A DNA stretch of 64,000 nt. Source: a bacterium. GTDB taxonomy: Bacteria; JADJOY01. The stretch lies in assembly GCA_046331705.1 (NCBI GenBank), contig JAXLQJ010000002.1, positions 78,370-142,369 on the forward strand, written 5' to 3'. The position numbers and the translations under genes are program-made. Below the pieces are notes generated by a model. The model was not told the origin of the DNA. It saw nothing but the letters and a program-made list of their open reading frames with translations, and did not search any database. Below are positions 2,153 through 44,298 of the stretch, piece by piece. Each line of letters opens with the position of its first letter. The first letter of the stretch is position 1.

Positions 2153-3877
2153 TCAACCGCGCTTCGCGGAGATCTTGCCTTGCTGCGGGATGTACCAAGG
2201 CGACGCGTACCACCAGTCGCCCGGCTCGGCGATGCCATCCTCGATGAGGATGTGCATGAGGTTGTAAGGGATCGCCATGAGGCAGAGCCCGCCTGGGTGC
2301 CCCGAGGTCTGATGCGCGTGGTAGAGGCCCTCGATCGGCGTGCGATAGCGCGCCAGCTCCTTGATCGGGCGGTTGGTCCAGAGCTGATCCTCGTCGTGGC
2401 GGCTGCCGCACCAGGTGCCGCCGATGAGCCCGGTGTTGCGGAACTCGACGTCGCGACCGGTGGCGCTCCAGTGGTGGATCAGGTTCGCGTCGTCCAGGCC
2501 GTCCACCATCTGGCCATACGCGGCGCGCATGTACGCATCCATCTCGGCCTTGTAGCGATCGAGGGCGTCCTCGCCTTCCTTGTGGAGGTCCGGCGACGTC
2601 ACCGCGACCTCGAAGGCGTTCGAGACGTAGCCGCGCCGATAGCTCGCCTGGCAGTCGGTGGGATCGAACGTCTGCGGCGGCGCGTGGAACCACATCACGC
2701 GCTCCGCCGGCACCACGGGTTGCCCTTTGTGCCCGTCCACGTCGGCGACGTTCTCGTAATAGATCTCGCGCGAGTCGCACGGATAGACGCCGAGCTGCGG
2801 GGTGCGCGCCGGACCCGCGCCGATACCTTTCGAGTCCGCGTGGGAGGCGAACTTCGCGTTGAGCCGGAGCGGCGTCTTGGTGTGAAAGACCGACACGTAG
2901 AGCGTCTGGTTCTTGAGGCTCACGTCCTTGATCTTCTGGATCACGCCCGGATCCAGGTGCTTCGGGCCGACCATCTTCAGGAACGCCTGGTGCACGTCGA
3001 CGGCGGCGATGACCGCCTTGTTCGCGCGGATGGTGCGACCGCCCATCGCCGCGGTCTCGCGGAGCCGCACGCCGATGGCACGACCATCCTCGATCAGGAT
3101 CTCTTCCACCGGACAGCAGGTGCGGACCATCGCGCCGTGGCTCACCGCAGCGCGATGGATCGCGTGGAAATAGCCGTGCAGACCGCCGCGCGGGATGCTG
3201 CGGTTCCCGGTGTTCGGAAGGGTGAGAAGCTGCACCGACGTCACCGCCGGGATCGCGACTCCCTCCCAGTGGCCCGCCGCCCCCGACGCCCAGGCCGCGA
3301 ACGCCATCGCGGTCTTGAAGTGCTCGGTCTCGCAGTGCTCGTCGAGCAGATCCAGCATCGTCATCTCGCGCAGCTCGTGCGTCCAGATGTCGGGCTGGTG
3401 CTGCTTGTAGACCTGCATGTACGGGACGTTGTCGTCCGTGACTTCCACCTCCGGCGGGTGCGGCGGGCACCAGAACGTCGCGCGCATCAGGTCGCGGGTG
3501 AAGGGCGGCGACCCCAACAACCCGCCGAGCTTCGCCCAGCCGAGCTTGTCGGTGTCGGAGATGGGCCGCCAGCCGTCCGTGCAGGCGAAGTCGGTGTTTT
3601 CCGTGAGCACGTCGTGGGGAGACCAATTCATGCGGAAACCGTGCTTGTGGAGCTCGAGCTGCTGGAAGCCCGGCGCCGGCGACGCGTACATGAGCATCGC
3701 GTGCGGAAAGATCCGCACGCCCGGGATCGGCTCCTGCGTCTCGCAGGCGCCGCCGCACTCGGTGCGCTCCTCGAGCACGCACACACTCAGGCCGCACTTC
3801 GCGAGGTACGCCGCCGTGGTCATGCCATTCGGCCCAGCGCCGACGATCACGATGTCGAACCGTTCGTCCTTGGCCAT
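2153..3877 (-). CDS. FAD-dependent oxidoreductase, phytoene desaturase (CrtI) family, paralog 2
   Basis: MAKDERFDIVIVGAGPNGM N-terminus with GGGAGG RBS; C-terminal RTPIEGLY motif. Track ORF 2153..4117 trimmed. Confidence 0.8.
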   Translation of the reverse strand: MAKDERFDIVIVGAGPNGMTTAAYLAKCGLSVCVLEERTECGGACETQEPIPGVRIFPHAMLMYASPAPGFQQLELHKHGFRMNWSPHDVLTENTDFACTDGWRPISDTDKLGWAKLGGLLGSPPFTRDLMRATFWCPPHPPEVEVTDDNVPYMQVYKQHQPDIWTHELREMTMLDLLDEHCETEHFKTAMAFAAWASGAAGHWEGVAIPAVTSVQLLTLPNTGNRSIPRGGLHGYFHAIHRAAVSHGAMVRTCCPVEEILIEDGRAIGVRLRETAAMGGRTIRANKAVIAAVDVHQAFLKMVGPKHLDPGVIQKIKDVSLKNQTLYVSVFHTKTPLRLNAKFASHADSKGIGAGPARTPQLGVYPCDSREIYYENVADVDGHKGQPVVPAERVMWFHAPPQTFDPTDCQASYRRGYVSNAFEVAVTSPDLHKEGEDALDRYKAEMDAYMRAAYGQMVDGLDDANLIHHWSATGRDVEFRNTGLIGGTWCGSRHDEDQLWTNRPIKELARYRTPIEGLYHAHQTSGHPGGLCLMAIPYNLMHILIEDGIAEPGDWWYASPWYIPQQGKISAKRG

Positions 3878-3930
3878 GAAGCCTCCCAGACTCGTCCCGT
3901 CACCCCACCGATCGACCGCCCCGGCGCCCG

Positions 3931-5559
3931 TCAGACGTAGCCCGCTTCTCGAGCCGCCGTGACGTACGTGGGCTCCGTCCACCACTTCGCGATCGCGAAG
4001 TCCTCGGCGATCGCGTTCGCGCAGTTGTAGCCAGGCCCGAAGATCACCATCCCCCCGGGCGCCGCGCTCGCGCCGCCGAGGTAGAGCCCCTTGACCGGCG
4101 TTCGATATTGCGAGCACTCCTGGTTCGGACGCAGGTAGCCCATCTGCAGCGGGTGGTACGCACCCTGCTTGTAGCTACCCCGCACCATGTTCGCGAACTT
4201 GTTCTGGAGGTCGGCAGGAGTCGTGAGATACGTCCACAACACGGCATCCTTGGTGAGGTTCGGAGCGTACCGACGAAGCACGGCGAGCTGCCGCTCGGCG
4301 GCCTCCTCTCGATACGCTCGATTCAGCCAACGTTCGGATCCCCCGTTCGCCAGCTCGAATGGCGCCATCTGGGAGATCAGTCCCGAGGCTCTCCCCGCGG
4401 GGGCTTGAAACGGATCGTGCCGGCTCGGAAAGCAGCAGTTGAAACCCGCGGCGTCCGGCATCTCGCCCCGCCCCATCGCATCCCAGTGGCTTTTCAGATC
4501 CGCCAGCGACTCGTAACCGAGGACGTAGATGAACGCGTCGTCGATCTCCGGCTCCTTCTCCGCGGCGGTGAAATGCGGCTGCTCGGCGAGGGCCAAGTGC
4601 TGGACGGCCAGGCTCCACTTCTCCCACTGCCACACACGCAGCATCTCGACGAACTCCTCGTCGAGCTTCTCCTCGCCCACGTACTTCAAGAAGGTCTGAT
4701 GGGTGTCGATGGTGCTCACGACGGCCTTGCTCGCCGCGTAGCGCGTCCCGTCCACGAGCTCGACGCCCTTGGCGACGTTGTTCTCGACCACGATCCGAGC
4801 GATCTGCGCGTTGGTTCGGATCTGACCCTTCTGCTCGAAGATCGATTTCAGCAGCGCTCCCGACACGCGGTGCGAACCGCCCACCGTGAGGCGATAATTC
4901 GCCATGCGATTCAAGTAGATCGGCACCATGTAGCTGACGCCCGACTGCGAATAGTCGAGCCCCCAATGACACGCCATGTAGAGCATCAGCGTTCGCACGT
5001 GCTCGTTCTCGAAGAGCTCGCAGACGATCTCTTCCGGCGTCTTCTCCGTGTACTCCGAGAGTGCTCGGCCGAGCTCCGTCATCTCCGCCCGCGCCGCCAT
5101 GAGCGGCGCCGCGTCCATCGGCACGTACGTCTGCGGCCCCAGGATGTGAGTCATCAGCTCGCCGAAGCGACGCTGCATGTCGCGGTAAGTATCCGCGTCT
5201 CGTCTCGAGAACCGAGCGATGGAAGCGCACGATCGCTCGACGTCGTGGTGAATGCAGAGCGCTCGCCCGTCCGCGAGCGGCATCGCGACCTGAAGCTCGG
5301 GGCGGATGTGTCGAACGCCGTATCGCTGCTCGAACTCGAAGTCCGAGTAGACCGGCGCGTAGTCGACCATCATCATGTAGACGGCGTGGGTGTTGTGATA
5401 GAAGTCCGGCAGCGTCACTTGCTCGGTGCAAAGGCCTCCTCCTGCTTCGAAACGTTTTTCGAGCAGCAACACCTTCTGCCCGGCCTTGCTCAGATACGCC
5501 GCGATGGCGAGCCCGTTCGGACCGCTTCCGATGACGATCACGTCGTAGACTTGCGTCAT
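3931..5559 (-). CDS. FAD-dependent oxidoreductase, phytoene desaturase (CrtI) family, paralog 3
   Basis: MTQVYDVIVIGSGPNGL N-terminus; C-terminal RTPVKGLY motif; 542 aa ORF. Confidence 0.8.
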   Translation of the reverse strand: MTQVYDVIVIGSGPNGLAIAAYLSKAGQKVLLLEKRFEAGGGLCTEQVTLPDFYHNTHAVYMMMVDYAPVYSDFEFEQRYGVRHIRPELQVAMPLADGRALCIHHDVERSCASIARFSRRDADTYRDMQRRFGELMTHILGPQTYVPMDAAPLMAARAEMTELGRALSEYTEKTPEEIVCELFENEHVRTLMLYMACHWGLDYSQSGVSYMVPIYLNRMANYRLTVGGSHRVSGALLKSIFEQKGQIRTNAQIARIVVENNVAKGVELVDGTRYAASKAVVSTIDTHQTFLKYVGEEKLDEEFVEMLRVWQWEKWSLAVQHLALAEQPHFTAAEKEPEIDDAFIYVLGYESLADLKSHWDAMGRGEMPDAAGFNCCFPSRHDPFQAPAGRASGLISQMAPFELANGGSERWLNRAYREEAAERQLAVLRRYAPNLTKDAVLWTYLTTPADLQNKFANMVRGSYKQGAYHPLQMGYLRPNQECSQYRTPVKGLYLGGASAAPGGMVIFGPGYNCANAIAEDFAIAKWWTEPTYVTAAREAGYV

Positions 5560-5656
5560 GAGATCCCTCGCGCCTCACTCGCGCCTCACGCGCGCCTCTC
5601 GCGCGCGGCGCGCAGCGCCCTCGCGGGGCTTCGCGCTTGCCATCGATGCGAAACGC

Positions 5657-7384
5657 TCACGCGACCCGCGGTCGGGCGTTCGCCTGCACCCGACGTTTCA
5701 CGATCTTGATCTGCTCGACCAGCGAGTCCGGCTCTTCCTTGCCTGGCTCGAGCCAAGGTTTCGCGAGCCCCAGATCCGCCGCGATGATCCGATAGCAGTT
5801 GTAGGCCTCCGTCGCTCCCGCGTTCGAGCCGACGTGCCACGCGCCGCCCGTGGCATAGAGGTTGGCGATCGGCGTGCGATGGTTCGCGAGCTCGGGCGTC
5901 GGACGGTTCTCGTCGGTCTGGAACGGCGAGCGATCGACGCCCGCCATGGTGCCGTTGGGACCGAGGTTCTTCATGCGGCGGTGATCGAACGAGCAGTTCG
6001 TATCGACGCCGATCACGTTGTCCCAGGTCATGTTGGGCGCGTAGTCCTGCCAGATCGTGATCAGCTCGTCGGCGTAGCGTTTCTTGATCTCGAGCCATTG
6101 CCGCTCGCTGAACGCCGTGGCGGGCGGTCCGAGCTGCTCGTTCTGGACGACGTGCTTTCCCGGAGGCGCGAAGCTCGGATCGACGAGGCTGTGACAGCCC
6201 ACCGTCGGCGCGTAGTCCTCGAGCGGCGGGAACTTCTGAAGCTTCTGGTACCAGCACTCGCGCGCCAGGTGCATCGGGTCGGGATCGGGCTGGAGCCCGA
6301 GCCACTGGCACTCGTGAATGTCCGGGTTGAACGCCTCGGCCTTGTACTTGGGCGCCGCGTGGACCGCGAAGCTGTACCACATGAGGCAGCCGAAGGTGTC
6401 TTGCAACAGCTCGACGCGCCGGCGCAGCAAGCCGTCCACGTGCTCCGCGCCGATCAGATCGAAGATCAATTGGTGCGGCGAGAGCGTGCTGACGACGATC
6501 TTGCGCGCCGCGATCTCGCTGCCGTCCGCGAGACGGATCCCGGTGGCGCGACCATTCTCGATGATGGCCTTGCTGACCGGTGAGCTGGTGAAGAACCGGC
6601 AGCCCCTCTGGATGAGGATCTGATGAGCCGCGTGCGCGATCTGGTGAGTGCCGCCGCGGTTGAAACCGATCGTCGGGAGCGTGGCCGCCATGCCCATCGT
6701 GGTCATGCCGGTGCCCGCTTCGTTGATGTCGACCACCGACGAGATGGCGAAACGCAGGATGCAGGATTGAAGCTCGGGAGACTCGAACCACTCCTGCGCG
6801 GCTCGTAGCCCGCTCGCCTTCATGGTCAACGTGTCCGGCGTGAAACCGTTCTCGAGCAGCGTCGGATAGAGCATCGCCTGGCGCTCCATGACGTCGCCCG
6901 AGATTCGTTCGTCGGCGGGCTTGAACAACGCGTCCACGAGCACCCGCAGGTATTCGTCGGTCTCGGTGAGCTTGGCGAGCCGACGCCAGGTATCGGCGTC
7001 GCGCTCCGAGAAGCGGGCGATCTCGTTGGCGGTCCGCTCTTGGGTGGGATCGTGCTTGACGCTGTAGATCGCGAGACAGCTCTCGGTGTCCCGGAACACG
7101 AAGCCGTCCGCGCACGTGTGCTGATCCCACTGCGCGCCGTAGTCCCAGAACTCGGGGAAGTCGCGCCACACGGGCGCGTAGTACCAGGGCAGGATGATGT
7201 TCGCGTGCGTGTTGCCGCGAAAGCCGGGGGCCGACGTCTCCTCGGTCGCGAGACAACCGCCGACCTCGTGACGGCGCTCGAAGATCCCGACGCTCATGCC
7301 GGCGTACTTCGTCAGGTACATCGCGAGCAACAGCGCCTTGTTGCCGCCCCCCACGATCACCGCGTCGAACGCCGCGTCGGCCAT
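5657..7384 (-). CDS. FAD-dependent oxidoreductase, phytoene desaturase (CrtI) family, paralog 4 (divergent GGGNKA nucleotide-binding loop)
   Basis: MADAAFDAVIVGGGNKAL N-terminus; C-terminal RTPIANLY motif; GAAGGGAG RBS before ATG. Confidence 0.75.
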   Translation of the reverse strand: MADAAFDAVIVGGGNKALLLAMYLTKYAGMSVGIFERRHEVGGCLATEETSAPGFRGNTHANIILPWYYAPVWRDFPEFWDYGAQWDQHTCADGFVFRDTESCLAIYSVKHDPTQERTANEIARFSERDADTWRRLAKLTETDEYLRVLVDALFKPADERISGDVMERQAMLYPTLLENGFTPDTLTMKASGLRAAQEWFESPELQSCILRFAISSVVDINEAGTGMTTMGMAATLPTIGFNRGGTHQIAHAAHQILIQRGCRFFTSSPVSKAIIENGRATGIRLADGSEIAARKIVVSTLSPHQLIFDLIGAEHVDGLLRRRVELLQDTFGCLMWYSFAVHAAPKYKAEAFNPDIHECQWLGLQPDPDPMHLARECWYQKLQKFPPLEDYAPTVGCHSLVDPSFAPPGKHVVQNEQLGPPATAFSERQWLEIKKRYADELITIWQDYAPNMTWDNVIGVDTNCSFDHRRMKNLGPNGTMAGVDRSPFQTDENRPTPELANHRTPIANLYATGGAWHVGSNAGATEAYNCYRIIAADLGLAKPWLEPGKEEPDSLVEQIKIVKRRVQANARPRVA

Positions 7385-7455: not shown

Positions 7456-7704
7456 TCAGAAATCGCCGGGATGGATCGGCGGCTTGAACCACGCGCGGAT
7501 GCGCAGCACGAAGGACACCACCGACATCGTGAGCATCGCCTTGAGAATGACGAGGATGTCCTGACGACTCACGGCACCGCGGATCTTCCAGCGCACCGGC
7601 TGAGTCGTTTGCATCTCCATGATGAGGTAATCGCCTTGAGCCTTCAGCGAGACCATCTCCGCCACCAGCTCCGCCTTGCCGAGTCCCGTCGATCGCATCA
7701 GCAT
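7456..7704 (-). CDS. small hypothetical protein with hydrophobic C-terminal segment (82 aa)
   Basis: High-GC3 minus frame; GAGGTGG RBS before ATG; putative TM stretch ILVILKAMLTMSVVSFVL; sits between the operator region and the oxidoreductase quartet. Confidence 0.45.
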   Translation of the reverse strand: MLMRSTGLGKAELVAEMVSLKAQGDYLIMEMQTTQPVRWKIRGAVSRQDILVILKAMLTMSVVSFVLRIRAWFKPPIHPGDF

Positions 7705-7759
7705 CGTTCGTCCACCTCGCTCGTGTCTCGAAAACCCGACCGGCCTCGATCGGCGCGCC

Positions 7760-8101
7760 TCAACTCATCGCCTCGAGATACTTTTCGAGGATGTGGCTCA
7801 TGATCTGCGCCGTCTGCGCCCGCGCTTTTCTGAGCGCGGGATTCGAATGGAGGAAGATGAGGTCGTCGAGCTCTTCGTCGGTGAAGGTCTCCGAGTAGAC
7901 GTACTCCGTGATCGCGATCGCTTGCTGGAAATCGTGGTGGTACTCGTCCTTTGCTTGCTGGAGCTCGGCCGCGAATCGTTCGTTTCCGTCGTTCTTGGCC
8001 TTCGCGATGAAGTACGTGAGCGCGAACTCGACGATGCTCGAATAGTGCGCGTGCGACTCCGATTCGCGCAGGTACTCGCGGGTCTTCTCTATCGATGCCA
8101 T
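7760..8101 (-). CDS. hypothetical protein (113 aa)
   Basis: ORF 7760..8347 trimmed to ATG at 8101 (MASIEKTREYLRESESHAHY); composition distinct from shadow ORFs; first gene downstream of the palindromic operator region on the minus strand. Confidence 0.55.
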   Translation of the reverse strand: MASIEKTREYLRESESHAHYSSIVEFALTYFIAKAKNDGNERFAAELQQAKDEYHHDFQQAIAITEYVYSETFTDEELDDLIFLHSNPALRKARAQTAQIMSHILEKYLEAMS

Positions 8102-8285
8102 GCGTGGCTCCGGGCAGTGGGCGAAGCGCGACGAGGCGCGCCCGGGCGCGTCGGCGCGAGCGCCGACGAGCTCGCAGAGGTTGCTTTCGCGTGAACCGAG
8201 CGCGTCGCGGAGAGTCGCGCGGAAGGTCTCGGTTGGGTGCGGATTCGAGTCACGACGTTCGCGTTTCGATTCCACCGCATGCGAA

Positions 8286-8301
8286 GTAGAACATGTTCTA
8301 C
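8286..8301. promoter_or_regulatory. perfect 16-bp palindrome GTAGAACATGTTCTAC, KstR-type (TnnAACnnGTTnnA) operator-like site
   Basis: Read directly; core TAGAACATGTTCTA fits the TetR/KstR-type consensus; lies in an AT-richer divergent intergenic region. Confidence 0.55.
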
Positions 8302-8475
8302 TCGACGGTATTTCAGGTGCGCAAGCAACTTGCGTGACCTGCAGCACGCAACGATGAAATATTTTTCGAATGGCTCACGGCGCGACGAGACGGTGCGCGG
8401 CGAGAATTTCGAGCGATCGAAGCGCTGGGTGACGGGCGTCACATTTTCAGCCGGCGGCGCTGTTCCATGATGCAA

Positions 8476-8491
8476 GTAGAACGTGTTCTAA
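8476..8491. promoter_or_regulatory. second operator-like palindrome GTAGAACGTGTTCTAA
   Basis: Core TAGAACGTGTTCTA is a perfect 14-bp palindrome fitting TnnAACnnGTTnnA; about 75 bp upstream of the acyl-CoA dehydrogenase start. Confidence 0.55.
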
Positions 8492-8562
8492 TCGAACCGA
8501 CGCGCCGCGGACGGACGGCGGCGGCACAGGCGATCCGCGGCGGATCGTGGAGCGAGCACGGC

Positions 8563-9744
8563 GTGGACTTCGAGCTCAGCCCGGAACAGCACGCGCTGCG
8601 GCGAGAGCTTCGGCGTTATTACCGCGAGCTCTTCACGCCCGAGCTGCGGGCGGCCCTCGACGCCGAATGGCACGAGGTGGGCGGTCCGGTGTTCCGCGAG
8701 GTGGTCGGACGCATGGGGGCGGACGGCTGGCTCGGCATCGGCTGGCCGCGCGAATACGGCGGCCAGGGCCGGACCGCGATCGAGCAGCTCATCTTCTGGG
8801 ACGAGACCTACCGGGCGCGCGCGCCGCTTCCCGTCATCTCGGTGAACACCGTCGGTCCCACGCTGATGCGCTACGGCACCGAGGACCAGAAGGCACGGCT
8901 GCTCCCGGGAATCCTGCGAGGCCAGCTCTTCTTCGCGATCGGCTACACCGAGCCCGGCGCGGGGACCGATCTCGCCTCACTCAAGACGCAAGCCCGCCGC
9001 GACGGTGACGAGTACGTCATCCAGGGACAGAAGGTCTTCACCACCCACGCGCACGACGCCGACTACGTGTGGCTGGCCGCCCGCACCGATCCCGAGGCGC
9101 CGAAGCACAAGGGCATCAGCATCATCCTGGTGCCCACCAGCACGCCCGGCTTCTCGGTGACTCCGACCTACACGCTCGGCGGCGAACGCACCAACACCAC
9201 GTACTTCGACGAGGTGCGCGTGCCGATCGCGAACCGGGTCGGCCCCGAGCACGGCGGCTGGCAGCTCATCACCGCGCAGCTCAATCACGAGCGCATCACG
9301 CTCGCAGCACCCGGCCTCGCCGATCGGTTGCTCGAAGAGGTCTGGCAATGGGCTCGGCGCACGCGCGGCCCCGACGGCGCGCCGATCGCCTCGGCGCCGT
9401 GGGTGGAGCTGTCGCTGGCGCGCGTCTACGCGAAGCTCGAGGCGCTCAAGCTCCTCAACTGGCGCTCCGCGTGGTCGATGTCGGAGGGCGTGCCGCGGAT
9501 GGCCGAGGCCTCCGCGCTCAAGGTGATGGGCACCGAGTTCTTCGGCGAGTGCTACCGGCTGCTGCTCGAGATCACCGGCGCCGCCGGCCTGGTTCCCCAA
9601 GGGGAGACCGGAGCGCTCTTCGGTGGCTTGCTGGAGCAGGCGTACCGGGGCGCCACCACGCTCACCTTCGGCGGTGGCGTGAACGAGGTGCAGCGCGATC
9701 TCATCGCGTGGTCGGGACTCGACCTGCCGAGGTCGCGAGGCTGA
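8563..9744 (+). CDS. acyl-CoA dehydrogenase
   Basis: VDFELSPEQHALRREL N-terminus typical of ACADs; C-terminal GGGVNEVQRDLIA; start moved from 8467 to in-frame GTG at 8563, because the 8467 start overlaps the operator palindrome. Confidence 0.8.
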   Translation: MDFELSPEQHALRRELRRYYRELFTPELRAALDAEWHEVGGPVFREVVGRMGADGWLGIGWPREYGGQGRTAIEQLIFWDETYRARAPLPVISVNTVGPTLMRYGTEDQKARLLPGILRGQLFFAIGYTEPGAGTDLASLKTQARRDGDEYVIQGQKVFTTHAHDADYVWLAARTDPEAPKHKGISIILVPTSTPGFSVTPTYTLGGERTNTTYFDEVRVPIANRVGPEHGGWQLITAQLNHERITLAAPGLADRLLEEVWQWARRTRGPDGAPIASAPWVELSLARVYAKLEALKLLNWRSAWSMSEGVPRMAEASALKVMGTEFFGECYRLLLEITGAAGLVPQGETGALFGGLLEQAYRGATTLTFGGGVNEVQRDLIAWSGLDLPRSRG

Positions 9745-34926: not shown

Positions 34927-35291
34927 GTGCGCGCCGCGCAGCAGGGATTCGTGCTCTTTGATCACGACGGTGCGTTCGCGAGGTGCGCGGTGGAAGCTCG
35001 ACGATGAGCGGGGCTCGTTCGCTTCTTCCGCGAAATGCAGGAAATCACGCGAAATCCCGCCCCTTATAGCACGTCCGTCCGCAGCGAGCCGACCCCACCA
35101 CCGGCCGCCGAGTGCCGCCACGCGCGATCCGCGGGGCCGCCGAGGATCGTCTTTGACGTGAGGAGTCCGCGTTGGTAACTTGCGCGCGACTCGTGCTTCC
35201 ACGGGTCGCTCGCGCGATGCCTTCGGTGGCCCTCCTCTCTCGCCTCGCCGCGCCCACGCCGCAGCCGATCGCAAGGTTGCGCGCCACCAGC

Positions 35292-37307
35292 ATGCTCACC
35301 CGGCTCACCGGGGTTACCCGCAGTCGGGGCGGCAAGGCGGCGCGCCGGATCGCCGTCGTGCTCGCGATCCTGATCGGCCTCGCCGGCGGGACGGCGAGCG
35401 CGTCGCGACCGCTCGATCCGGCGCTCTTCCCGGCGCCGCCGCAGCTCGAAGCGAACGTCCTGTTCTGGACGGACGTCTACAGCCGTTACGACAGCCATCG
35501 CGTGGTCATCCACGACAACGTGTATCTGGACATCGTCTACACCGTGCTCGATTTCAGCGAGCTCGATCGCCAGGACATCTCGGATGCCGCCAAGGCCTCG
35601 AGCCGCGCGGACAGGGTCGAGCGCGCGCTCGCGAGCTACGCCGACATCCTGCGGGATCTGGCCGGATCACCGAGCCCCGGCGCCACCATCAGCGCCTCCG
35701 AGCGCCGCGACGTGGAGACGATGTTCCGGCGAGTGAGCGGCGGCGACGGCAAATACCTCGCCGCCGTCGACCGCCTTCGCGCGCAAACCGGGCTCGCCGA
35801 CAAGTTCGAAGGCGCCATCCGCCGCTCGGGCCGGTACATGCCCGAGATCGAGCGCATCTTCCGCACCCGCGGGCTGCCGATCGAGCTCTCGCGGCTGCCT
35901 TTCGTCGAGTCCATGTTCCAGGACCGCGCGCGCTCGAAGGTGGGCGCCGGCGGCATCTGGCAGTTCATGCCTTCCACCGGCCGCCTCTACCTGCGCATTC
36001 GCCGTGAGCTGGACGAGCGCTGGGATCCCTTCGCCGCGAGCGACGGCGCCGCGCGGCTGCTGGCGGACAACTACGAACGGTTGGGGAGCTGGCCGCTCGC
36101 CCTGACGGCGTACAACCACGGCGCGGCGGGAATGGCGCGCGCGGCGAGCCAGCTCGGCACCACCGACCTCGGCGTGATCGCCTGGAACTACGACTCTCGT
36201 TCGTTCGGGTTCGCCTCGCGGAACTTCTACGCCGAGTTCCTCGCCGCGGTCTCGGTCTACGAGAACCGCGCCATCCATTTCCCGGGTGTCGTCCCGGATG
36301 CCGCGCTGGCGTTCGACGAGCTGGTGGTGTCGAAGCCGATCTCGATTCGCACCCTCGCCGATCGGACCGGCACCAGCGTCGACTCGATCGAAGACTTGAA
36401 CCTCGGCCTGACCTCGGGCGTCCTCGCCGGCAAGTACCCGCTGCCGGCGGGCTACCGGCTGCGCGTTCCCGAGGGCTCGCGAGGCGTTTTCCTGGCCGCG
36501 CTCGAGTCCGCCGCTCCTGCCGTGCGGACCGCCAGCGCCCCAGCCACTTCCACCCGAACGCACGTGGTCGCGCGCGGCGAGACCGTCTCGCAGATCGCGG
36601 CGCGTTACGACGTCCCCACGAACGACCTGCTGCGCGCCAACGGCCTGCGACCGTCGTCGCGCATTCGGCAGGGTCAGCGGCTGCGCGTGCCGACGGCCGG
36701 CTCCGGCGAGGACACGCCGGAAACGACACTCTCGGTCGTGGCGCTCGCCGAGCCGGAATCGACCCCGTCGGCGAGCCAGCCGAGCCAACCGGCGGACGCG
36801 GCTCCTCGGCTCGTGGCCAAGCGCAGCTCGACACCGTCCACGGCCCGCGCCGCCGCGTCGGCGAAGCCGATCGACACGGCCTCGGCCGCGCCTGCGGCGT
36901 CTCGCACCGAGACTCACCTGGTGGCGCGGGGCGAGACGCTCTCGAGCATCGCCGCACGTTACGGTACGACCGCGCAAGCGATCCAAGCCGCGAACGGGCT
37001 ACGCAAGAACGGTCAGATCAAGGCGGGTCAGACGCTTCGGATCGACGACGCCGCCGAAGCGGCGCCGACCCTACCCGCCGCGCCGCCCCCAGCGGTGGCC
37101 AAGGCCGAGCGCGACACGCGCGTCAGTCGCGCCGAGGGCGCTCGTGCCGAGCCCCGCAAACCCGTGACGCACAAGGTGAAACGCGGCGAGACCCTGGTCG
37201 AGATCGCATCTCGGTACGGCACTTCGGTCACCGATCTCAAGAAAGAGAACCGGCTGCGCGGACCGACCATCCAACCCAACCAGCTGCTCCGTATTCCCCG
37301 CGATTGA
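35292..37307 (+). CDS. membrane-bound lytic murein transglycosylase D-like (SLT domain plus three LysM repeats)
   Basis: SLT-like FVESMFQDRARSKVGAGGIWQFMPSTG; three LysM repeats (HVVARGETVSQIAARY, HLVARGETLSSIAARY, HKVKRGETLVEIASRY); signal-peptide-like N-terminus from ATG 35292. Confidence 0.8.
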   Translation: MLTRLTGVTRSRGGKAARRIAVVLAILIGLAGGTASASRPLDPALFPAPPQLEANVLFWTDVYSRYDSHRVVIHDNVYLDIVYTVLDFSELDRQDISDAAKASSRADRVERALASYADILRDLAGSPSPGATISASERRDVETMFRRVSGGDGKYLAAVDRLRAQTGLADKFEGAIRRSGRYMPEIERIFRTRGLPIELSRLPFVESMFQDRARSKVGAGGIWQFMPSTGRLYLRIRRELDERWDPFAASDGAARLLADNYERLGSWPLALTAYNHGAAGMARAASQLGTTDLGVIAWNYDSRSFGFASRNFYAEFLAAVSVYENRAIHFPGVVPDAALAFDELVVSKPISIRTLADRTGTSVDSIEDLNLGLTSGVLAGKYPLPAGYRLRVPEGSRGVFLAALESAAPAVRTASAPATSTRTHVVARGETVSQIAARYDVPTNDLLRANGLRPSSRIRQGQRLRVPTAGSGEDTPETTLSVVALAEPESTPSASQPSQPADAAPRLVAKRSSTPSTARAAASAKPIDTASAAPAASRTETHLVARGETLSSIAARYGTTAQAIQAANGLRKNGQIKAGQTLRIDDAAEAAPTLPAAPPPAVAKAERDTRVSRAEGARAEPRKPVTHKVKRGETLVEIASRYGTSVTDLKKENRLRGPTIQPNQLLRIPRD

Positions 37308-37379
37308 GCGACGCGTGACGCCCTCGGCAACGTGTGCCGCGAAACGCAACACCGACTTGCACTTTCCCACGGCGATCTC

Positions 37380-37409
37380 TTGACACGGGTCAAAACGCGT
37401 CGGTAGCAT
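37380..37409 (+). promoter_or_regulatory. sigma70-like promoter candidate TTGACA-N18-TAGCAT
   Basis: Read in the intergenic region about 140 bp upstream of the ferredoxin gene. Confidence 0.3.
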
Positions 37410-37547
37410 CGAAAATGATTGTCAGTCGCAACGCGTGCAACTACCCCGTCGGCCGGCCGCTGCGTCGCGCTTCGATGCTACGGGTACTTCACTCGCCACG
37501 GACGCGCGGGCTGACGCGCGGTCCCGGGAGGCTGAAAAGAGGTTCTC

Positions 37548-37787
37548 GTGTTCCACCAAATCACGGATGACTGCATCCGCTGCGACGCCTGCCCACGGGA
37601 ATGCCCGGTCGGTGCGATCGCGCCAGGACCACGCAAGTACCTGATCCGAAAGGATGCATGTCTCGACTGCGGCGCCTGCGTCGCGGTCTGCCCAACCGAC
37701 GCCATCGTCTGCAACGCGCGCAGCCACGACGAGATCACGGATGCCTGGGGTCAAAGCGAATCCGAGTCGCTCCAAGCCAGTGGATGA
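37548..37787 (+). CDS. 4Fe-4S dicluster ferredoxin
   Basis: CIRCDACPRECP and CLDCGACVAVCP cluster motifs; AAGAGG RBS before GTG. Confidence 0.8.
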   Translation: MFHQITDDCIRCDACPRECPVGAIAPGPRKYLIRKDACLDCGACVAVCPTDAIVCNARSHDEITDAWGQSESESLQASG

Positions 37788-38967
37788 CCGCATCGTCGTC
37801 ATCGACGAGCGCTTGCGCAAAGTCTTCCACTTCTACATCTCGCTCTTTCCCAACTACCGCGAGGCTGGTCGCGCGGTGGGCGTCGGCAAAGACACGATCG
37901 CGAAGTACGCCACCGAGAGCAACAACATGGCGTACCCGATCTACTTGGCGATGACGAGCGAGATCCAGCGGCGGGTGCCGCGCAAGCAGGTCGTCGAGGT
38001 CTTCGGCAGAACCGGCCTGGATCGCTGGCCCGTGGAGGTGCGATCCAAGAACGGCAGCCAGATCGACAACGTGATGTTCGAGATCACGCCGGGCATCCGG
38101 CGCTTGATCCAGCACTTCACGGCGGCGTTTCCGAACCGGAGCCAAGCCGCGCGCGCGCTCGACCTGAACCCGCGCACGCTCAAGGCGTACGCCAACGGCC
38201 AGATCCAATGCTTTCCGCGCAGTCGCTTCAAGCGCATGGTGGACATCCTGCGCGAGCACGGCGAGGACGAGAGCGTGTTGCTCGAGATGGTCGGCTCGAA
38301 CGAGTGGGAAGCCGTCATTCGCGAGCGCACGCGCTCGGAAACGCTCTACATGGATCGCGAGCAGCTGCTCGAGCGGCTGGTCGATTTCCTGGCCGCGGGC
38401 GACGCGGACCTGAAGGACGTGAGCCGGCCGATCTACAACGCCTGCCGGCGCTATTTCGGCGCGCTCGGTCCGGCGTGCGACGCGGCCATGGACTTCCTCG
38501 TCGACCGCACCGAGAAGCGCGGCAGAGCCTTGGTGCAAGCCGGAAAGATCGTCGAGGCGCAGGAACTGGTGCTGCGCTTCGAGCGCGCGCTACGCACCTA
38601 CACGGCGAAGATCAAGGCGCGGGTCCACGCCGCGCGCCGAGAATCCAAGCTCGACTGGCAGGAGCGCGTGGTCCAGATGGTGAAGCGCAAGGACCGCATC
38701 AAGGATCTGATCCAGAAGGAAAGCCAGTTCCATCCCGACGTCAACGCGCGCGCCGAGCACGAGAAGATTCGTTTCGCGCACCCGTACCTGCGTGGCTTCC
38801 GGATCTACTCGCGCGACTTCACCTATCGCCCGGGCGAGCTGCTCTTCCATCCGCTCTTCGGGATGGGTCGCGTCGTGGACGTCGTCGATCGCGGCCACAT
38901 GCGCGTCTCGTTCGGCTCGAAGCACGGCGCCAAGCTGCTGGCCTTCCAGCCCGAACGCCACGCCTGA
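37780..38967 (+). CDS. hypothetical protein with HTH-like motifs and C-terminal Tudor/CarD-like segment
   Basis: GTG start overlapping the ferredoxin stop (GTGGATGA); HTH-like AGRAVGVGKDTIAKY and SQAARALDLNPRTLKAY; C-terminal GELLFHPLFGMGRVVDV; ORF 37654..38967 trimmed. Confidence 0.5.
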   Translation: MDDRIVVIDERLRKVFHFYISLFPNYREAGRAVGVGKDTIAKYATESNNMAYPIYLAMTSEIQRRVPRKQVVEVFGRTGLDRWPVEVRSKNGSQIDNVMFEITPGIRRLIQHFTAAFPNRSQAARALDLNPRTLKAYANGQIQCFPRSRFKRMVDILREHGEDESVLLEMVGSNEWEAVIRERTRSETLYMDREQLLERLVDFLAAGDADLKDVSRPIYNACRRYFGALGPACDAAMDFLVDRTEKRGRALVQAGKIVEAQELVLRFERALRTYTAKIKARVHAARRESKLDWQERVVQMVKRKDRIKDLIQKESQFHPDVNARAEHEKIRFAHPYLRGFRIYSRDFTYRPGELLFHPLFGMGRVVDVVDRGHMRVSFGSKHGAKLLAFQPERHA

Positions 38968-39067
38968 ACGGCCCGCGAACGGCGGGCGCGCGTCTCGACG
39001 CACGCCGTCGATCGCGCGGCTTCGCCGTGACGGGAAGCGGCGACGCAGGCCCCGCGATGGGGCGAGC

Positions 39068-39925
39068 TCACCCGGCAGCAGGCGCGGCGAGCTTGTCGAC
39101 GATCTCGCGCATCTGGGCGAAGGCCCGGCGCATGCGCGAGCCGGCGGAAAGCATCTGCGATCCATCGACCAGCACCACGTGGCCGTCGCGACAGGCGGGC
39201 ACGTCGCTCAGCTCGAGCATCTCCTCGCGGTGCTTGGGGCGGAATCGGAACGGATCGCTGGCCAGCAGCACGAGCGCCGGGCTGGCGCTGACCAGGTCGG
39301 CCAGCTCGATCGCCTGCACGGGCTCGCCCTTCGCGGGAAACACGTTGTCGAGGCCGTGCAGCGCGAGGAAATCACTCGCGTACGTCTGGGCCGAGAGCGC
39401 GGCGAACGGGTCCTTGGAGACCAAGCACGCCGTCCGGATCCGGGGCCGACCGCGCGCCCACAGCTTGCTCACGTTCTGCTCGGCACGGATCTCTTGAACC
39501 AGCGCTGCCGCCTGTTCCTCGCGATCGACGAGAATCCCCAGCGTCTCGAGGTTGGCCACCGCCTCCTCGACGGTCTTCACGTGCACGACGAACAGCGGCA
39601 CCTTGCTGCCGAGCTTCTCGAGATCCTCGGCGCGGTTGTGCTCGAGATCGGCGAGCACCAGGTCCGGCATGAGGTCGGCCACCCGCTGCAGATCCAGGTC
39701 CTTCGAGACCTGCGGTCGCTCCAAGCCTCGCACGCGCTCGCCCCGCGGCTGGCCACCACCCTTGCCATTGCCGACCAGCTCGTCGTCGAGGCCCAGATCG
39801 CTGAGCGTCTGGGTGATGGTGGGCGAGAGCGAGACCACGCGGCGGGGATAGCGCAGCAGCTCGCGCCGGGCTCCCGTGCCGTCGGTGATCGAGATGAATT
39901 CGAGCGCAGCGGCCCGTACACCCAT
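39068..39925 (-). CDS. periplasmic-binding-protein-fold protein (BtuF/TroA-like), no obvious signal peptide
   Basis: RRVVSLSPTITQTLSDLGLDDELVG pattern typical of class III solute-binding proteins. Confidence 0.5.
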   Translation of the reverse strand: MGVRAAALEFISITDGTGARRELLRYPRRVVSLSPTITQTLSDLGLDDELVGNGKGGGQPRGERVRGLERPQVSKDLDLQRVADLMPDLVLADLEHNRAEDLEKLGSKVPLFVVHVKTVEEAVANLETLGILVDREEQAAALVQEIRAEQNVSKLWARGRPRIRTACLVSKDPFAALSAQTYASDFLALHGLDNVFPAKGEPVQAIELADLVSASPALVLLASDPFRFRPKHREEMLELSDVPACRDGHVVLVDGSQMLSAGSRMRRAFAQMREIVDKLAAPAAG

Positions 39926-41757: not shown

Positions 41758-43212
41758 ATGCGCGTCCTACTCGTCCACCCCCACCTCTTCCATCACCCGA
41801 CGGCGACCGTTCCGAGCGGGCTCGCGTGGCTGGCGGCGGCGCTGCGGGCGCGTGGCGCCCAAGTGGCTCTGCTCGATCTCGCCTTCGTCTGGAACCGCAG
41901 CCGCGTCATCCCCGCGGCGATCGGCGAGCTCGAGCCCGACGTCATCGGCATCGGCGTCGCGCACCTCGACAACGAGTGCGCGTTCCACTCGATCACGTTC
42001 CTTCCGCAAATCCGCTGGGTGATCGATCGCATCCGCGCCGCCAGCCGCGCCCCGATCGTGGCAGGCGGCTTCGGCATCACGCAGTGCGCCCGCGACGTGC
42101 TCACGTACCTGGGCCTGGCGCACGGCTTCCAGGGCGGCGACGTGGCGGAGGCGGCGCGCTGGATCGAAGCCGTCGGCGGACGCGACGATCGCGCCGAGGT
42201 GGCCGGCGCCATCCGCTGGACCGGTGCCGCGTACGAGAGCTTCACCGCGGCCGCGCGACCGACCCACGGGCTGCCCATCCCGTGCTCGGCAGCGCACGAC
42301 CTCGTCGACTACTCGCCGTACCGGCGGACGTCGGCTGCGGCCGTGGTGCCGATCGTGCTGGATCGGGGCGGCGTTCCGGCGCGGCGACCCGCGGCCGAGA
42401 TCGCGGACGAGCTCGGCGCGCTCGCCGCAACGCGTTCGGTTTCCCGCGCCTTGCTCGCGGGCCTGACGGTGGGGCTCGATCCCGCCCACGACGACGAGCT
42501 GCTCGAGACCTTGGCGAGCCGTGGCGCGCCGCTCGCCACGGAGATCCAGCTCGCGGCGCGCGCCGCGACTCGCGAGCGGGTCGCGCTGCTGCGCGCCAGC
42601 GGCGCCCGCGCGATTCGGCTGCGGCTCGCGGCGCCGGCCAGCGGCGAGGTGTCGCGCCCATCTCGGCTCGCCGCCGAGCGCGATGCGCTTCCGCGCGCGC
42701 TCGAGCGCATCGGCGGCGCCATCCCCATCCGGCTCGAGGTTGCGATCGGCGGGCTCGACGAGTCGGCAGACTCACTCGCACGAACGCTCGCCCTCGTCGA
42801 TGCGTTGCACCCGCGGCCGGCTGCGATCGAGCTCGTCCCCGGCGTCCGGCTCTGGGACGAGCCCGGCGAGGGCGCCGTCATCCGGCGCGGCGGCTTCGCC
42901 GGTGACTCGCCGATCTGGCCGCGCTTCGGCTTCGCCGCCGAGATCGAGTCGGGCTTGGCGGAGCGCCTCCGGCAGTTCGCCTCGACGCGCCCGGGCGTGA
43001 GCGTGGACTCGACGCCTACGCGCCGTGGCAACGCGTTGCCCACGCGATCGGGCGCCGCTGCGGGGTCTGGCCCGCGTGGCTCGCGGGCTCGGCGCTGGCC
43101 GATCTCCCGAAACGCCTGCGACGCGCGTGTATCGAAAGAGTACCGTTCCGCATGCAGCCGATGTAACATCCGTCGACGCCACGATCGAAACCGAGACGAA
43201 CGTCGAGCATCC
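41758..43212 (+). CDS. B12-binding-domain radical-SAM-like protein lacking the CxxxCxxC motif; 3' boundary unresolved
   Basis: N-terminus MRVLLVHPHLF...GLAWLAAALRARGAQVALLDL resembles the B12-binding domain of class B radical SAM enzymes, but no Cys triad follows; codon bias decays near 43000 yet the frame has no stop before 44298. Confidence 0.4.
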
Positions 43213-44298
43213 ATGGCCTCGCCGACCACGACCACGGTCCTCACGCAGGAAGAGATCAAGGTTCCCTGGAAGCTGTTCCGCGGGAACCATCAGCGCAGCG
43301 GCCAAGTCGCCGCGATGAATCCGGTTCGTCTCACCGGCGTGCGCTGGGAGCTGCGCGTCGGTCGCGTGACGTGGTCATCGCCCGCGATCGACGACGACAC
43401 CGTCTACATCGGCCTCGAGGACGGCGCGCTGCTGGCGGTCGACGCACGTTCCGGCAAGCGCGTGTGGCGATATCGCACGGGCGGCGCCGTGCTGAGCTCG
43501 CCCGCCATCGATGGGGAATTGGTGCTGGTCGGATCCGAGGACCAGAACCTGCACGCCGTCGACCGCAAGGTCGGCGTGGCGCGCTGGACCGCGCCGCTCG
43601 GAAGCGCGGTGACCAGCTCGCCGCTGGTGAAGGGCGGGCGCATCTTCGTGGGTTCGTGGGACGAGAACCTCTACTGCCTCTCGGAGAAGGACGGCGCGGT
43701 GCTGTGGAGCCATCCCACCGGCGGGCGCGTGTGGAGCTCGCCTGCGCTAGCCGACGACACCGTGGTGGTGGCATCGGCGTCCGGCTACATCCTGGCGCTC
43801 GATCCCCGTGACGGCTCACGGAAGTGGCGCTTCAAGGCCCGCAACCGCATCTACTCGACGCCCGCCATCGCCCACGGAATGGTCTTCGTGGGCTGTCACG
43901 ACGGCAACCTCTACGCCATCGACATGAAGACGGGCAAGCGGCGCTACGCGGTGGAGACCAAGGACAAGATCCGGTCGTCGCCGGCGGTCGTGGAAGGCAA
44001 GGTCCTGTTCGGGTCCGAGGACGGGAAGTTCCATTGCATCGACGCGCTGAGCGGCGAGCAGCGCTGGGTCTTCGATGCCAAGGGCGGCATCGACTCGTCG
44101 CCCGCCGTGAGCGGCGACACCGTCCTCTTCGGCACGCTCGCCAACCGCGTGCACGCGCTCGACGTGAACAACGGCCGCGAACGCTGGGGCTTCTCCACCG
44201 ACGACTGGGTCGATTCCAGCCCGGCGCTGTGGGGTCGATTGATCGTGTTCGGGTCGTACGACGGCCACCTCTACGGGCTCGAGTTCGACACCGAGTGA
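43213..44298 (+). CDS. PQQ-like beta-propeller repeat protein (BamB-like fold)
   Basis: Repeated SSPA(I/V)..G.(V/I)(Y/F).G..DG.L.A(V/L)D propeller blades; ATG at 43213 follows an AT-richer stretch; in frame with the upstream ORF. Confidence 0.6.
   Translation: MASPTTTTVLTQEEIKVPWKLFRGNHQRSGQVAAMNPVRLTGVRWELRVGRVTWSSPAIDDDTVYIGLEDGALLAVDARSGKRVWRYRTGGAVLSSPAIDGELVLVGSEDQNLHAVDRKVGVARWTAPLGSAVTSSPLVKGGRIFVGSWDENLYCLSEKDGAVLWSHPTGGRVWSSPALADDTVVVASASGYILALDPRDGSRKWRFKARNRIYSTPAIAHGMVFVGCHDGNLYAIDMKTGKRRYAVETKDKIRSSPAVVEGKVLFGSEDGKFHCIDALSGEQRWVFDAKGGIDSSPAVSGDTVLFGTLANRVHALDVNNGRERWGFSTDDWVDSSPALWGRLIVFGSYDGHLYGLEFDTE

Follow-up and report, generated by a model that had tools for sequence, protein, structure and literature searches.

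The Tudor domains of the helicases PcrA and UvrD (Pfam PF21196; PDB 5DMA, 6YI2, 7EGS/7EGT and 9DQS) are five-strand barrels of ~50 residues that lie at the extreme C-terminus of a superfamily 1 (SF1) helicase motor, which they recruit to RNA polymerase and to UvrB. The PcrA Tudor recognizes a TGE β-hairpin that is located in the RpoB SI1 insert and whose motif UvrB shares, and RpoB and UvrB compete for the C-terminal domain (CTD) of PcrA/UvrD (PMC8318588); the domain does not bind the β1 lobe used by Mfd and CarD, and there is no competition with Mfd (PMC8318588). As a candidate RNA-polymerase-binding surface of PcrA, Sanders et al. chose H681, W684, K712 and L714 (PMC5397179), and point mutations in the CTD strongly cut RNA polymerase binding in pulldowns, F705 being part of the aromatic cage (PMC5397179). 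Here we describe a locus in a 64-kb stretch of bacterial DNA (contig JAXLQJ010000002.1 of assembly GCA_046331705.1; hereafter the window) where a barrel that sequence comparison relates to these Tudor domains ends an uncharacterized 408-residue protein, X, behind two helix-turn-helix (HTH) modules and a helical region rather than behind a helicase motor, and where the gene of X overlaps that of a small ferredoxin.

The components of the locus (a ferredoxin, HTH modules, a Tudor RNA-polymerase-interaction domain and a Fur-family operator) are each already known; a search of literature and annotation did not find two HTH modules combined with a PcrA/UvrD-type Tudor in a non-helicase protein, and no non-helicase carrier of such a Tudor turned up in the literature search. 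We read the locus as a peroxide- or metal-stress operon that would encode an electron carrier together with a DNA-binding adaptor docking on the RNA polymerase β subunit or on UvrB, and give this reading as a whole a probability of about 0.5.

The C-terminal domain of X

In an AlphaFold2 model calculated from a 19-sequence alignment (mean predicted local distance difference test score, pLDDT, 83.9), the C-terminus of X folds into a five-strand barrel (strands 367–370, 374–383, 386–391 and 397–401; pLDDT ~90), and Foldseek relates the last ~50 residues to Tudor, PWWP and Agenet folds with probabilities of 0.9–0.97. When compared to the PDB, a profile built from 16 family CTDs matches the UvrD/PcrA chains 7egt_B (E 6.2e-6), 4c2t_A (3.8e-5), 7egs_B (5.9e-5), 6yi2_A (7.2e-5), 9dqs_A (7.8e-4) and 5dma_A (PcrA; 9.6e-4). 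The RNA-polymerase-interacting domain (RID) of Mfd (3mlq) follows at E 0.06, CdnL (2lqk, 2lt4) at 0.19–0.25 and CarD (4l5g, 4xlr) at 0.85–1, the CarD/CdnL structures aligning with the profile over ~25 residues only. A pairwise hhalign comparison with the CTD of PcrA from G. stearothermophilus, whose numbering agrees with the residues named in PMC5397179, gives a probability of 94.5% and E 7e-8; in this alignment, PcrA H681, W684, F705, K712 and L714 correspond to X H370, F373, F391, K398 and L400. The His, aromatic, Lys and Leu positions tested for RNA polymerase binding in PcrA are thus conserved in X, whose five residues are invariant in the five closest sequences. Family-wide, the His never varies, nor does the second Phe, the Leu is nearly invariant, and the first aromatic position is occupied by Phe, Tyr or Leu. 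No helicase domain is found in X by Pfam or NCBIfam.

A Tudor-like, RNA-polymerase-interacting domain had also been recognized at this position by the initial annotation, which placed it in the CarD/CdnL family; the kind of domain is upheld by the Tudor profile and Foldseek matches, but the family is not. Besides the gap in E-values (6e-6 for UvrD vs 0.2–1 for CarD/CdnL), a search with the Pfam hidden Markov model CarD_TRCF_RID (PF02559) returns nothing on the window protein at E ≤ 1, and weak matches in six of the 19 family members that underlie all family-wide domain counts (best E 0.0066). CarD/CdnL proteins carry an N-terminal RID followed by a C-terminal helical domain with a Trp wedge on promoter DNA, whereas X has no such domain and its barrel occupies residues 355–404 of 408, behind the HTH modules and long helices; M. 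xanthus CarD has an HMGA-like tail, whereas the DNA-binding part of X is of the XRE-type HTH. CarD/CdnL docks on the β1 lobe, and X would by analogy with PcrA be expected on the SI1 hairpin or on UvrB. There is a taxonomic point of contact, as part of the X family comes from metagenome-assembled genomes (MAGs) labeled Deltaproteobacteria, an older class name that covers M. xanthus. Membership of X in the CarD/CdnL family was rejected on the grounds of the missing PF02559 match, the E-values and the C-terminal position of the barrel, and the domain is, judging from sequence, a PcrA/UvrD-type Tudor.

A further protein from the search of cluster representatives, the M20 peptidase P0025 (366 aa), matches the Tudor portion of the X profile with its ~50 C-terminal residues (E 3e-6) and is another non-helicase carrier of the barrel.

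The PcrA/UvrD CTD binds UvrB by the RpoB motif, with the partners competing (PMC8318588), and X could, rather than a transcription factor, be an oxidative-stress-induced DNA-repair adaptor that binds DNA, engages UvrB via its Tudor and either recruits nucleotide excision repair or blocks UvrD. The PerR-like regulator that heads the operon in sister species (see below) would agree with such a role, but two XRE-type HTH modules suggest sequence-specific rather than damage recognition and repair genes are linked to X in no locus examined, which leaves us regarding a repair adaptor as very unlikely.

Helix-turn-helix modules and the X family

X is rare: an index of 5.8 billion proteins yields four homologs, and a profile search of 1.84 billion cluster representatives yields 24 matches, of which ~17 cover all or nearly all of the protein (E ≤ 1e-30); the family itself amounts to ~20 clusters. 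Copies that have a source name are all called 'hypothetical protein', most are unnamed, and the MAGs from which the family derives are labeled Deltaproteobacteria, Bdellovibrionota and Gemmatimonadota; the family is thus very rare and its hosts known so far are all uncultured, the first of these MAG groups being deltaproteobacterial/Myxococcota-like.

The two HTH-like segments proposed in the initial annotation hold up. Modules 1 and 2, which display the HTH signatures AGRAVGVGKDTIAKY and AARALDLNPRTLKAY, are homologous to each other as the result of a tandem duplication of a ~85-residue unit (hhalign probability 99%, E 4e-18); HTH_31 and NUMOD1 match 13 of the 19 family members (best HTH_31 E 2e-5), HTH_3 matches six (best 1.4e-5), and HTH_28 and HTH_23 also match several. 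The most conserved stretch of the whole family, NPRT-KAY, belongs to module 2. Searched against viral models (BFVD) with Foldseek, X has its top matches among CI repressors and XRE/HTH proteins (E 2.4e-3 and probability 0.99 for the best), and comparison of the whole model to the PDB gives weak matches to eukaryotic Tudor/PWWP proteins and low-probability ones to Rgg/PlcR. With XRE/CI repressors (HTH_3, HTH_31; phage CI) the X modules share the signature AA-x-LGV-x-x-T-x-x-Y-x-x-G; they differ from them in forming two ~85-residue units in tandem, each with extra helices and short strands, in scoring under the Pfam cut-offs, and in belonging to a protein without a peptidase or a typical CI C-terminal domain.

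Between the modules and the barrel lies a long-helix region that matches only generic bundles in structure comparisons and that, on the basis of the model, is possibly an oligomerization or spacer domain. The X profile also matches 'homing endonuclease associated repeat' proteins (PF18780; P0024, P0027) over a segment with NACRRYFGALGPACDAAM (window ~38365–38553, X residues ~209–271), and the start of the long-helix region may derive from such a repeat; one family member, P0005 (531 aa), carries a ~120-residue insertion that resembles a duplicated long-helix segment. The X family alignment contains no conserved cysteines, so that X is not itself an Fe-S protein.

At five orthologous loci, the ratio of non-synonymous to synonymous substitution rates (dN/dS), calculated for the non-overlapping parts of both genes, is 0.05–0.13 for the ferredoxin and 0.02–0.15 for X. 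This strong purifying selection indicates that neither is a chance open reading frame (ORF) of a 69% GC genome, 69% being the GC content of the window.

It also bears on the idea that X is what remains of a mobile element or of a prophage repressor, in a neighborhood without functional meaning. The structural resemblance to phage repressors, the weak similarity to NUMOD1 and homing-endonuclease repeats, and the variable neighborhoods of distant relatives would suit such an origin; however, X has no match in PHROGs or PADLOC searches, integrase and phage genes are missing nearby, and the locus is in stable synteny with housekeeping MltD-like, FtsJ and PTPS genes and under strong purifying selection, making a mobile remnant highly improbable. 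A phage or defense origin of X was rejected for lack of a PHROGs or PADLOC match.

The ferredoxin–X gene pair and its operator

The upstream gene encodes a 2x[4Fe-4S] ferredoxin of 79 aa, as initially annotated: it has two CxxCxxCxxxCP motifs (C9, C12, C15, C19 and C38, C41, C44, C48), exceeds the cut-offs of Pfam Fer4 (E 5.5e-12, 45.4 bits vs 21.1) and NCBIfam FdxA_fam (NF058577; 74.8 bits vs 65), and matches several dicluster models as well. All ferredoxin homologs keep the eight cluster cysteines. Compared to clostridial-type 2[4Fe-4S] ferredoxins (FdxA_fam), the window protein adds a conserved acidic tail of 27 C-terminal residues whose coding sequence overlaps another gene, and whose motif E-I-T/R-D-A-W, outside the cluster-binding core, is kept as far as the 52% relative. 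Purine-rich equivalents of the Shine-Dalgarno (SD)-like sequence in front of the gene are ACGAGG, CGAGG and GAGGGGG in the related loci L008, L001 and L023.

The frame of X is open from 37654 to the stop codon at 38965–38967 and offers two candidate starts. The ATG equivalent to 37741 is kept at all seven ferredoxin–X junctions compared and in every ferredoxin-linked locus; the 47-nt overlap that it produces is also given by independent gene calls in L020, L021, L022 and one JGI contig, the overlap measuring 41 nt in L023 and 65 nt in L003. ATG 37741 follows an SD-like stretch with GAG, which in L023 and L003 becomes a strong GGAGG or GGGGAG. Within the ferredoxin frame, the ATG is built from xAT-Gxx codons (Asp or His followed by Ala or Gly) that use the minority codons GAT and CAT (27% and 18% of the Asp and His codons, respectively), which together with the conservation of the ATG suggests selection for keeping the X start. 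On account of the conserved ATG, the overlap calls and the rare codons, X is therefore taken as the frame starting at 37741. GTG 37780, present in GTGGATGA at 37780–37787, would give the 395-aa product and 8-nt overlap of the initial annotation; it is GCG in L010 and was rejected on this basis and on the conservation of ATG 37741 throughout. Hence the overlap itself is retained and lengthened, the 408-aa protein is most likely the correct one, and classical stop/start coupling (1–4 nt, ATGA/TGATG) is contradicted by a conserved start that lies 47 nt 5' of the ferredoxin stop. With the start of X this far inside the ferredoxin gene, the two proteins are presumably made together by co-translation from one mRNA.

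Related loci, retrieved with an alignment of ten X family sequences, preserve the overlapping ferredoxin–X arrangement in ~11 independent contigs (X identity 52–98%): the ferredoxin gene lies directly 5' of X and overlaps it in the window, L001/L011, L008, L009, L010 and L012 (X identity 85–98%), and the same overlap recurs in L020/L021, L022, the JGI contig, L023 and L003/L004 (X identity 52%). Conversely, a word-indexed search of 5.8 billion proteins gave only six close homologs of the ferredoxin; all six lie beside X or on a contig linked to X, each of the four looked up is followed by X, and the window-type ferredoxin subfamily was found only beside X. The co-occurrence that the initial annotation proposed to check is thus observed within this subclade and breaks down in L002 and in all relatives of ~30% identity. 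No gene neighbor common to the whole X family was found, and the ~30% relatives share no other neighbor, their neighborhoods being variable. In sum, ferredoxin and X are tightly linked, but within a single subclade only.

Two single contigs deserve mention. In L019 an X relative of ~30% identity, an MltD-like SLT/LysM gene and a Bac_transf gene lie within 5 kb (the three genes span 2490–3572, 5671–7326 and 7554–8978); both neighbors are also those of the window, here in another order and without a ferredoxin, a hint that the neighborhood is older and received the ferredoxin (and PerR) genes by insertion. In L002 a cytochrome P450 gene and X (3315–4508 and 4646–5851) are 138 bp apart, placing another redox protein beside X.

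The operon is headed by a promoter-like site that is the sole such site in 37200–39200 and whose −35 hexamer coincides with the start coordinate, 37380, of the initial annotation. TTGACA-N18-TAsCAT likewise heads the operon in L001, L008, L009, L010 and L012, with L020/L021 included through their operator. That operator, GAAAATGATTGTC, is an imperfect 6-1-6 palindrome; the window contains a single instance of the pattern GARAATSATTSTC, also when one mismatch is tolerated (chance expectation 0.12), and the box recurs at the equivalent place in L001, L008–L012 and L020/L021, becoming a perfect palindrome, GAGAAT-C-ATTCTC, in L001. Promoter and box together are conserved in seven distinct contigs, and the box alone also in L020/L021. 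The box resembles the inverted repeat of Fur-family operators and is the predicted binding site of a regulator.

A candidate for this regulator is encoded between the promoter and the ferredoxin in L001, L010, L012, L020/L021, L022 and the JGI contig, where a 144-aa Fur-family gene is found. The best matches of the L001 protein are PerR models and B. subtilis PerR (PDB 2fe3, E 2e-22), of which it retains all five regulatory-site ligands, H37, D85, H91, H93 and D104, with D104 diagnostic for PerR. The gene does not occur in the window, L008, L009 or L023, and no remnant of it was detected in the window leader (37424–37547). The window, L008 and L009 nonetheless keep the operator, so that the regulator is presumably encoded elsewhere in those genomes; L023 does not match the operator. 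The combination of a Fur-family operator after the −10 hexamer and a PerR-like gene in the sister loci implies that the operon is probably kept repressed in the absence of stress, and that peroxide or altered metal status lifts the repression. Unlike the usual composition of PerR regulons, the partner gene here encodes a DNA-binding protein, not a detoxification enzyme. In L023, a Fur-box-like GATAATTGCGAATGATTAC stands 5' of a TTGACA-17-TATCAT promoter (175–245), whereas the box of the window clade follows the −10.

Linkage and operator together bear on the redox-linked transcription factor pair of the initial annotation, in the form of a CarD/CdnL-family factor that acts on the β1 lobe and is switched by the ferredoxin as a dedicated redox-sensing partner. 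The tight conserved overlap, the restriction of the ferredoxin subfamily to X neighbors, the tail motif conserved beyond the cluster core, the location of the operon behind a PerR/Fur-type operator and the weak CarD_TRCF_RID matches in six of 19 members all argue for such a pair. Against it stand the poor CarD/CdnL/Mfd scores (E 0.06–1 vs 6e-6 for UvrD, with no PF02559 match at E ≤ 1), the C-terminal barrel, and the use of the SI1 hairpin rather than β1 by the PcrA-type Tudor (PMC8318588). Moreover, most of the family has no ferredoxin and X no conserved cysteines. The conserved linkage thus survives from the original proposal, and the redox-switched CarD/CdnL pair as such seems to us quite unlikely.

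Table 1. Features of the ferredoxin–X locus in window coordinates; the last row refers to positions in the sister loci
Feature	Positions	Strand	Details
MltD-like SLT/LysM gene	35172–37307	+	upstream neighbor
Sigma-70-type promoter-like site	37380–37409	+	TTGACA, 18-nt spacer, TAGCAT; 10/12 consensus positions
Fur-family (PerR/Fur-type) palindromic operator-like box GAAAATGATTGTC	37411–37423	.	two bases after −10
Shine-Dalgarno-like AAGAGG	37535–37540	+	7 nt 5' of ferredoxin start codon
Ferredoxin gene, 79 aa, 2x[4Fe-4S]	37548–37787	+	GTG start; Fer4, FdxA_fam matches
Overlap of ferredoxin 3' end and X start	37741–37787	+	47 nt; conserved ATG
Gene X, 408-aa uncharacterized protein	37741–38967	+	less likely alternative start GTG 37780, 395 aa
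HTH module 1, core motif LFPNYREAGRAVGVGKDTIAKY	37783–38055	+	residues 15–105; helical, pLDDT 80–91; NUMOD1 matches in the family
HTH module 2, core motif FPNRSQAARALDLNPRTLKAYANGQ	38062–38334	+	residues 108–198; HTH_31 match
Long-helix region	38356–38796	+	residues 206–352; helical bundle or coiled coil
PcrA/UvrD-type Tudor domain (predicted)	38803–38952	+	residues 355–404; profile, hhalign, Foldseek
TroA-like / Peripla_BP_2 'helical backbone metal receptor' gene (periplasmic metal receptor)	39068–39925	−	convergent, downstream neighbor
PerR-like Fur-family gene, sister loci	L001 9313–9747; L010 3064–3492; L012 5314–5745; L020 494–928; L022 139–576		

The two ORFs lie on the same (+) strand between the MltD-like gene and the convergent TroA-like gene, and this chromosomal synteny, with the former upstream and the latter downstream, is stable across species-level genomes; FtsJ, PTPS and MltD-like neighbors represent lineage-specific housekeeping synteny. 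The TroA-like gene is convergent with X throughout the close clade (also L001 11331–12188 and L020 2470–3327), and this metal-related neighbor fits a Fur-family operator, although synteny alone may explain its placement. A scan of the + strand detected no intrinsic terminator 3' of X, where the folding of GC-rich hairpins does not surpass that of shuffled sequence (z 0.61). A riboswitch or other structured RNA was rejected, as an Rfam scan covering the whole locus, its 130-nt leader included, gave no match at E ≤ 1. The −10/operator region is joined to the leader by a perfect 11-nt inverted repeat (GTAGCATCGAA at 37403–37413 and TTCGATGCTAC at 37471–37481), which is probably due to chance because it is absent from L008 and L001. 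Farther downstream, an 846-aa ORF (41758–44298, + strand) appears to consist of an N-terminal region, which by position matches a weak B12-binding gene of L001, and a C-terminal run of PQQ-like β-propeller repeats; L001 has two separate genes of 445 and 361 aa at its position, and a gene fusion, a missed stop and ORF read-through in GC-rich DNA are candidate explanations.

A proposed stress operon and the evidence for and against it

Building on the observed gene structure, domain identities, conserved arrangement, and promoter and operator sequences, we propose that ferredoxin and X form a two-gene stress operon that has three genes in sister species. A PerR-type repressor would occupy the box beside the −10 and leave it in response to peroxide or to altered metal status, and the resulting single mRNA would yield the ferredoxin and, from the internal overlapping start, X. 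The latter would act as a DNA-binding adaptor, its two tandem XRE/CI-like HTH modules holding DNA, the long-helix region spacing or oligomerizing the protein, and the Tudor domain docking it on RNA polymerase β (SI1 TGE hairpin) or on UvrB, so as to tether, recruit or retain RNA polymerase at particular DNA sites or to compete with UvrD. The ferredoxin would most simply be a co-induced electron carrier, and may in addition relay redox or iron-sulfur status to X. In this scheme the binding of a repressor to the box and of X to DNA, the partner of the Tudor and any ferredoxin–X contact are predictions. The ferredoxin is a possible redox input to X; its exclusive linkage and conserved acidic tail favor the idea, and its absence from most of the family speaks against its belonging to the core mechanism of X.

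Several observations weigh against the stress operon with a docking adaptor. As far as X is concerned, Pfam and NCBIfam scans give no model at cut-off; a search for HTH models does find HTH_31 on the protein (E 2e-4), but at 21.9 bits vs a cut-off of 27, and PcrA_UvrD_tudor (PF21196) gives weak matches in two of the 19 members and is not significant on the window protein. Of the Tudor residues, the key lysine of PcrA/UvrD varies in distant members of the X family, the K712 equivalent being Lys or Arg in ~10 of 16, so that the ability to bind the partner may not extend to every family member. A candidate docking hairpin, [VIL]DxxTGE[VIL][VILT], is absent from the six frames of the window, rpoB and uvrB being located outside it. 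With respect to the regulator, no Fur-family gene was found anywhere in the 64 kb, and the PerR-like protein of the sister loci remains below all NCBIfam cut-offs (108 vs 180 bits), which touches on the choice between a peroxide and an iron or zinc signal. As for the ferredoxin, it is replaced by a cytochrome P450 5' of X in L002 (X identity 59%), and no ORF with CxxCxxCxxxC occurs within 2.5 kb of X in the ~30% relatives (L005–L007, L013–L019); it is therefore not needed for the core function of X.

Some of these observations would be accounted for if X were an ordinary XRE/CI-type repressor, with helices for dimerization, a barrel serving oligomerization or binding of a ligand or nucleic acid, and a ferredoxin that merely belongs to the same PerR/Fur regulon as an electron carrier in peroxide detoxification or in the handling of iron. 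In anaerobes, PerR regulons typically include small Fe-S electron carriers, which counts in favor of this view, as do the best full-length Foldseek matches of X (phage CI and HTH repressors), the many roles served by Tudor/SH3-like barrels, the lysine that is not conserved family-wide and a ferredoxin that is dispensable in most lineages. However, in sequence the barrel specifically matches the CTD of UvrD/PcrA and not SH3 or Tudor domains at large, and H370 and F391 are invariant across the family, with L400 nearly so; we therefore hold a plain repressor to be unlikely.

In a stronger version of our proposal, X would be the founding member of a new class of bacterial transcription factors that use a UvrD-type Tudor to dock on the SI1 TGE hairpin, the 'helicase interaction motif', at which binding has been described for helicases only. 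In this clade a dedicated [4Fe-4S] ferredoxin reporting on peroxide or iron would gate its activity, giving a PerR–ferredoxin–X relay that also competes with UvrD for RNA polymerase and UvrB during oxidative stress. This version is, in our estimate, improbable.

In summary, the presence of a PcrA/UvrD-type Tudor on an HTH protein suggests that the RNA polymerase hairpin on which helicases dock is also open to sequence-specific DNA-binding proteins. The PerR-like/ferredoxin/X operon provides a concrete setting for this docking hypothesis and, if it is true, X could compete with UvrD under stress.

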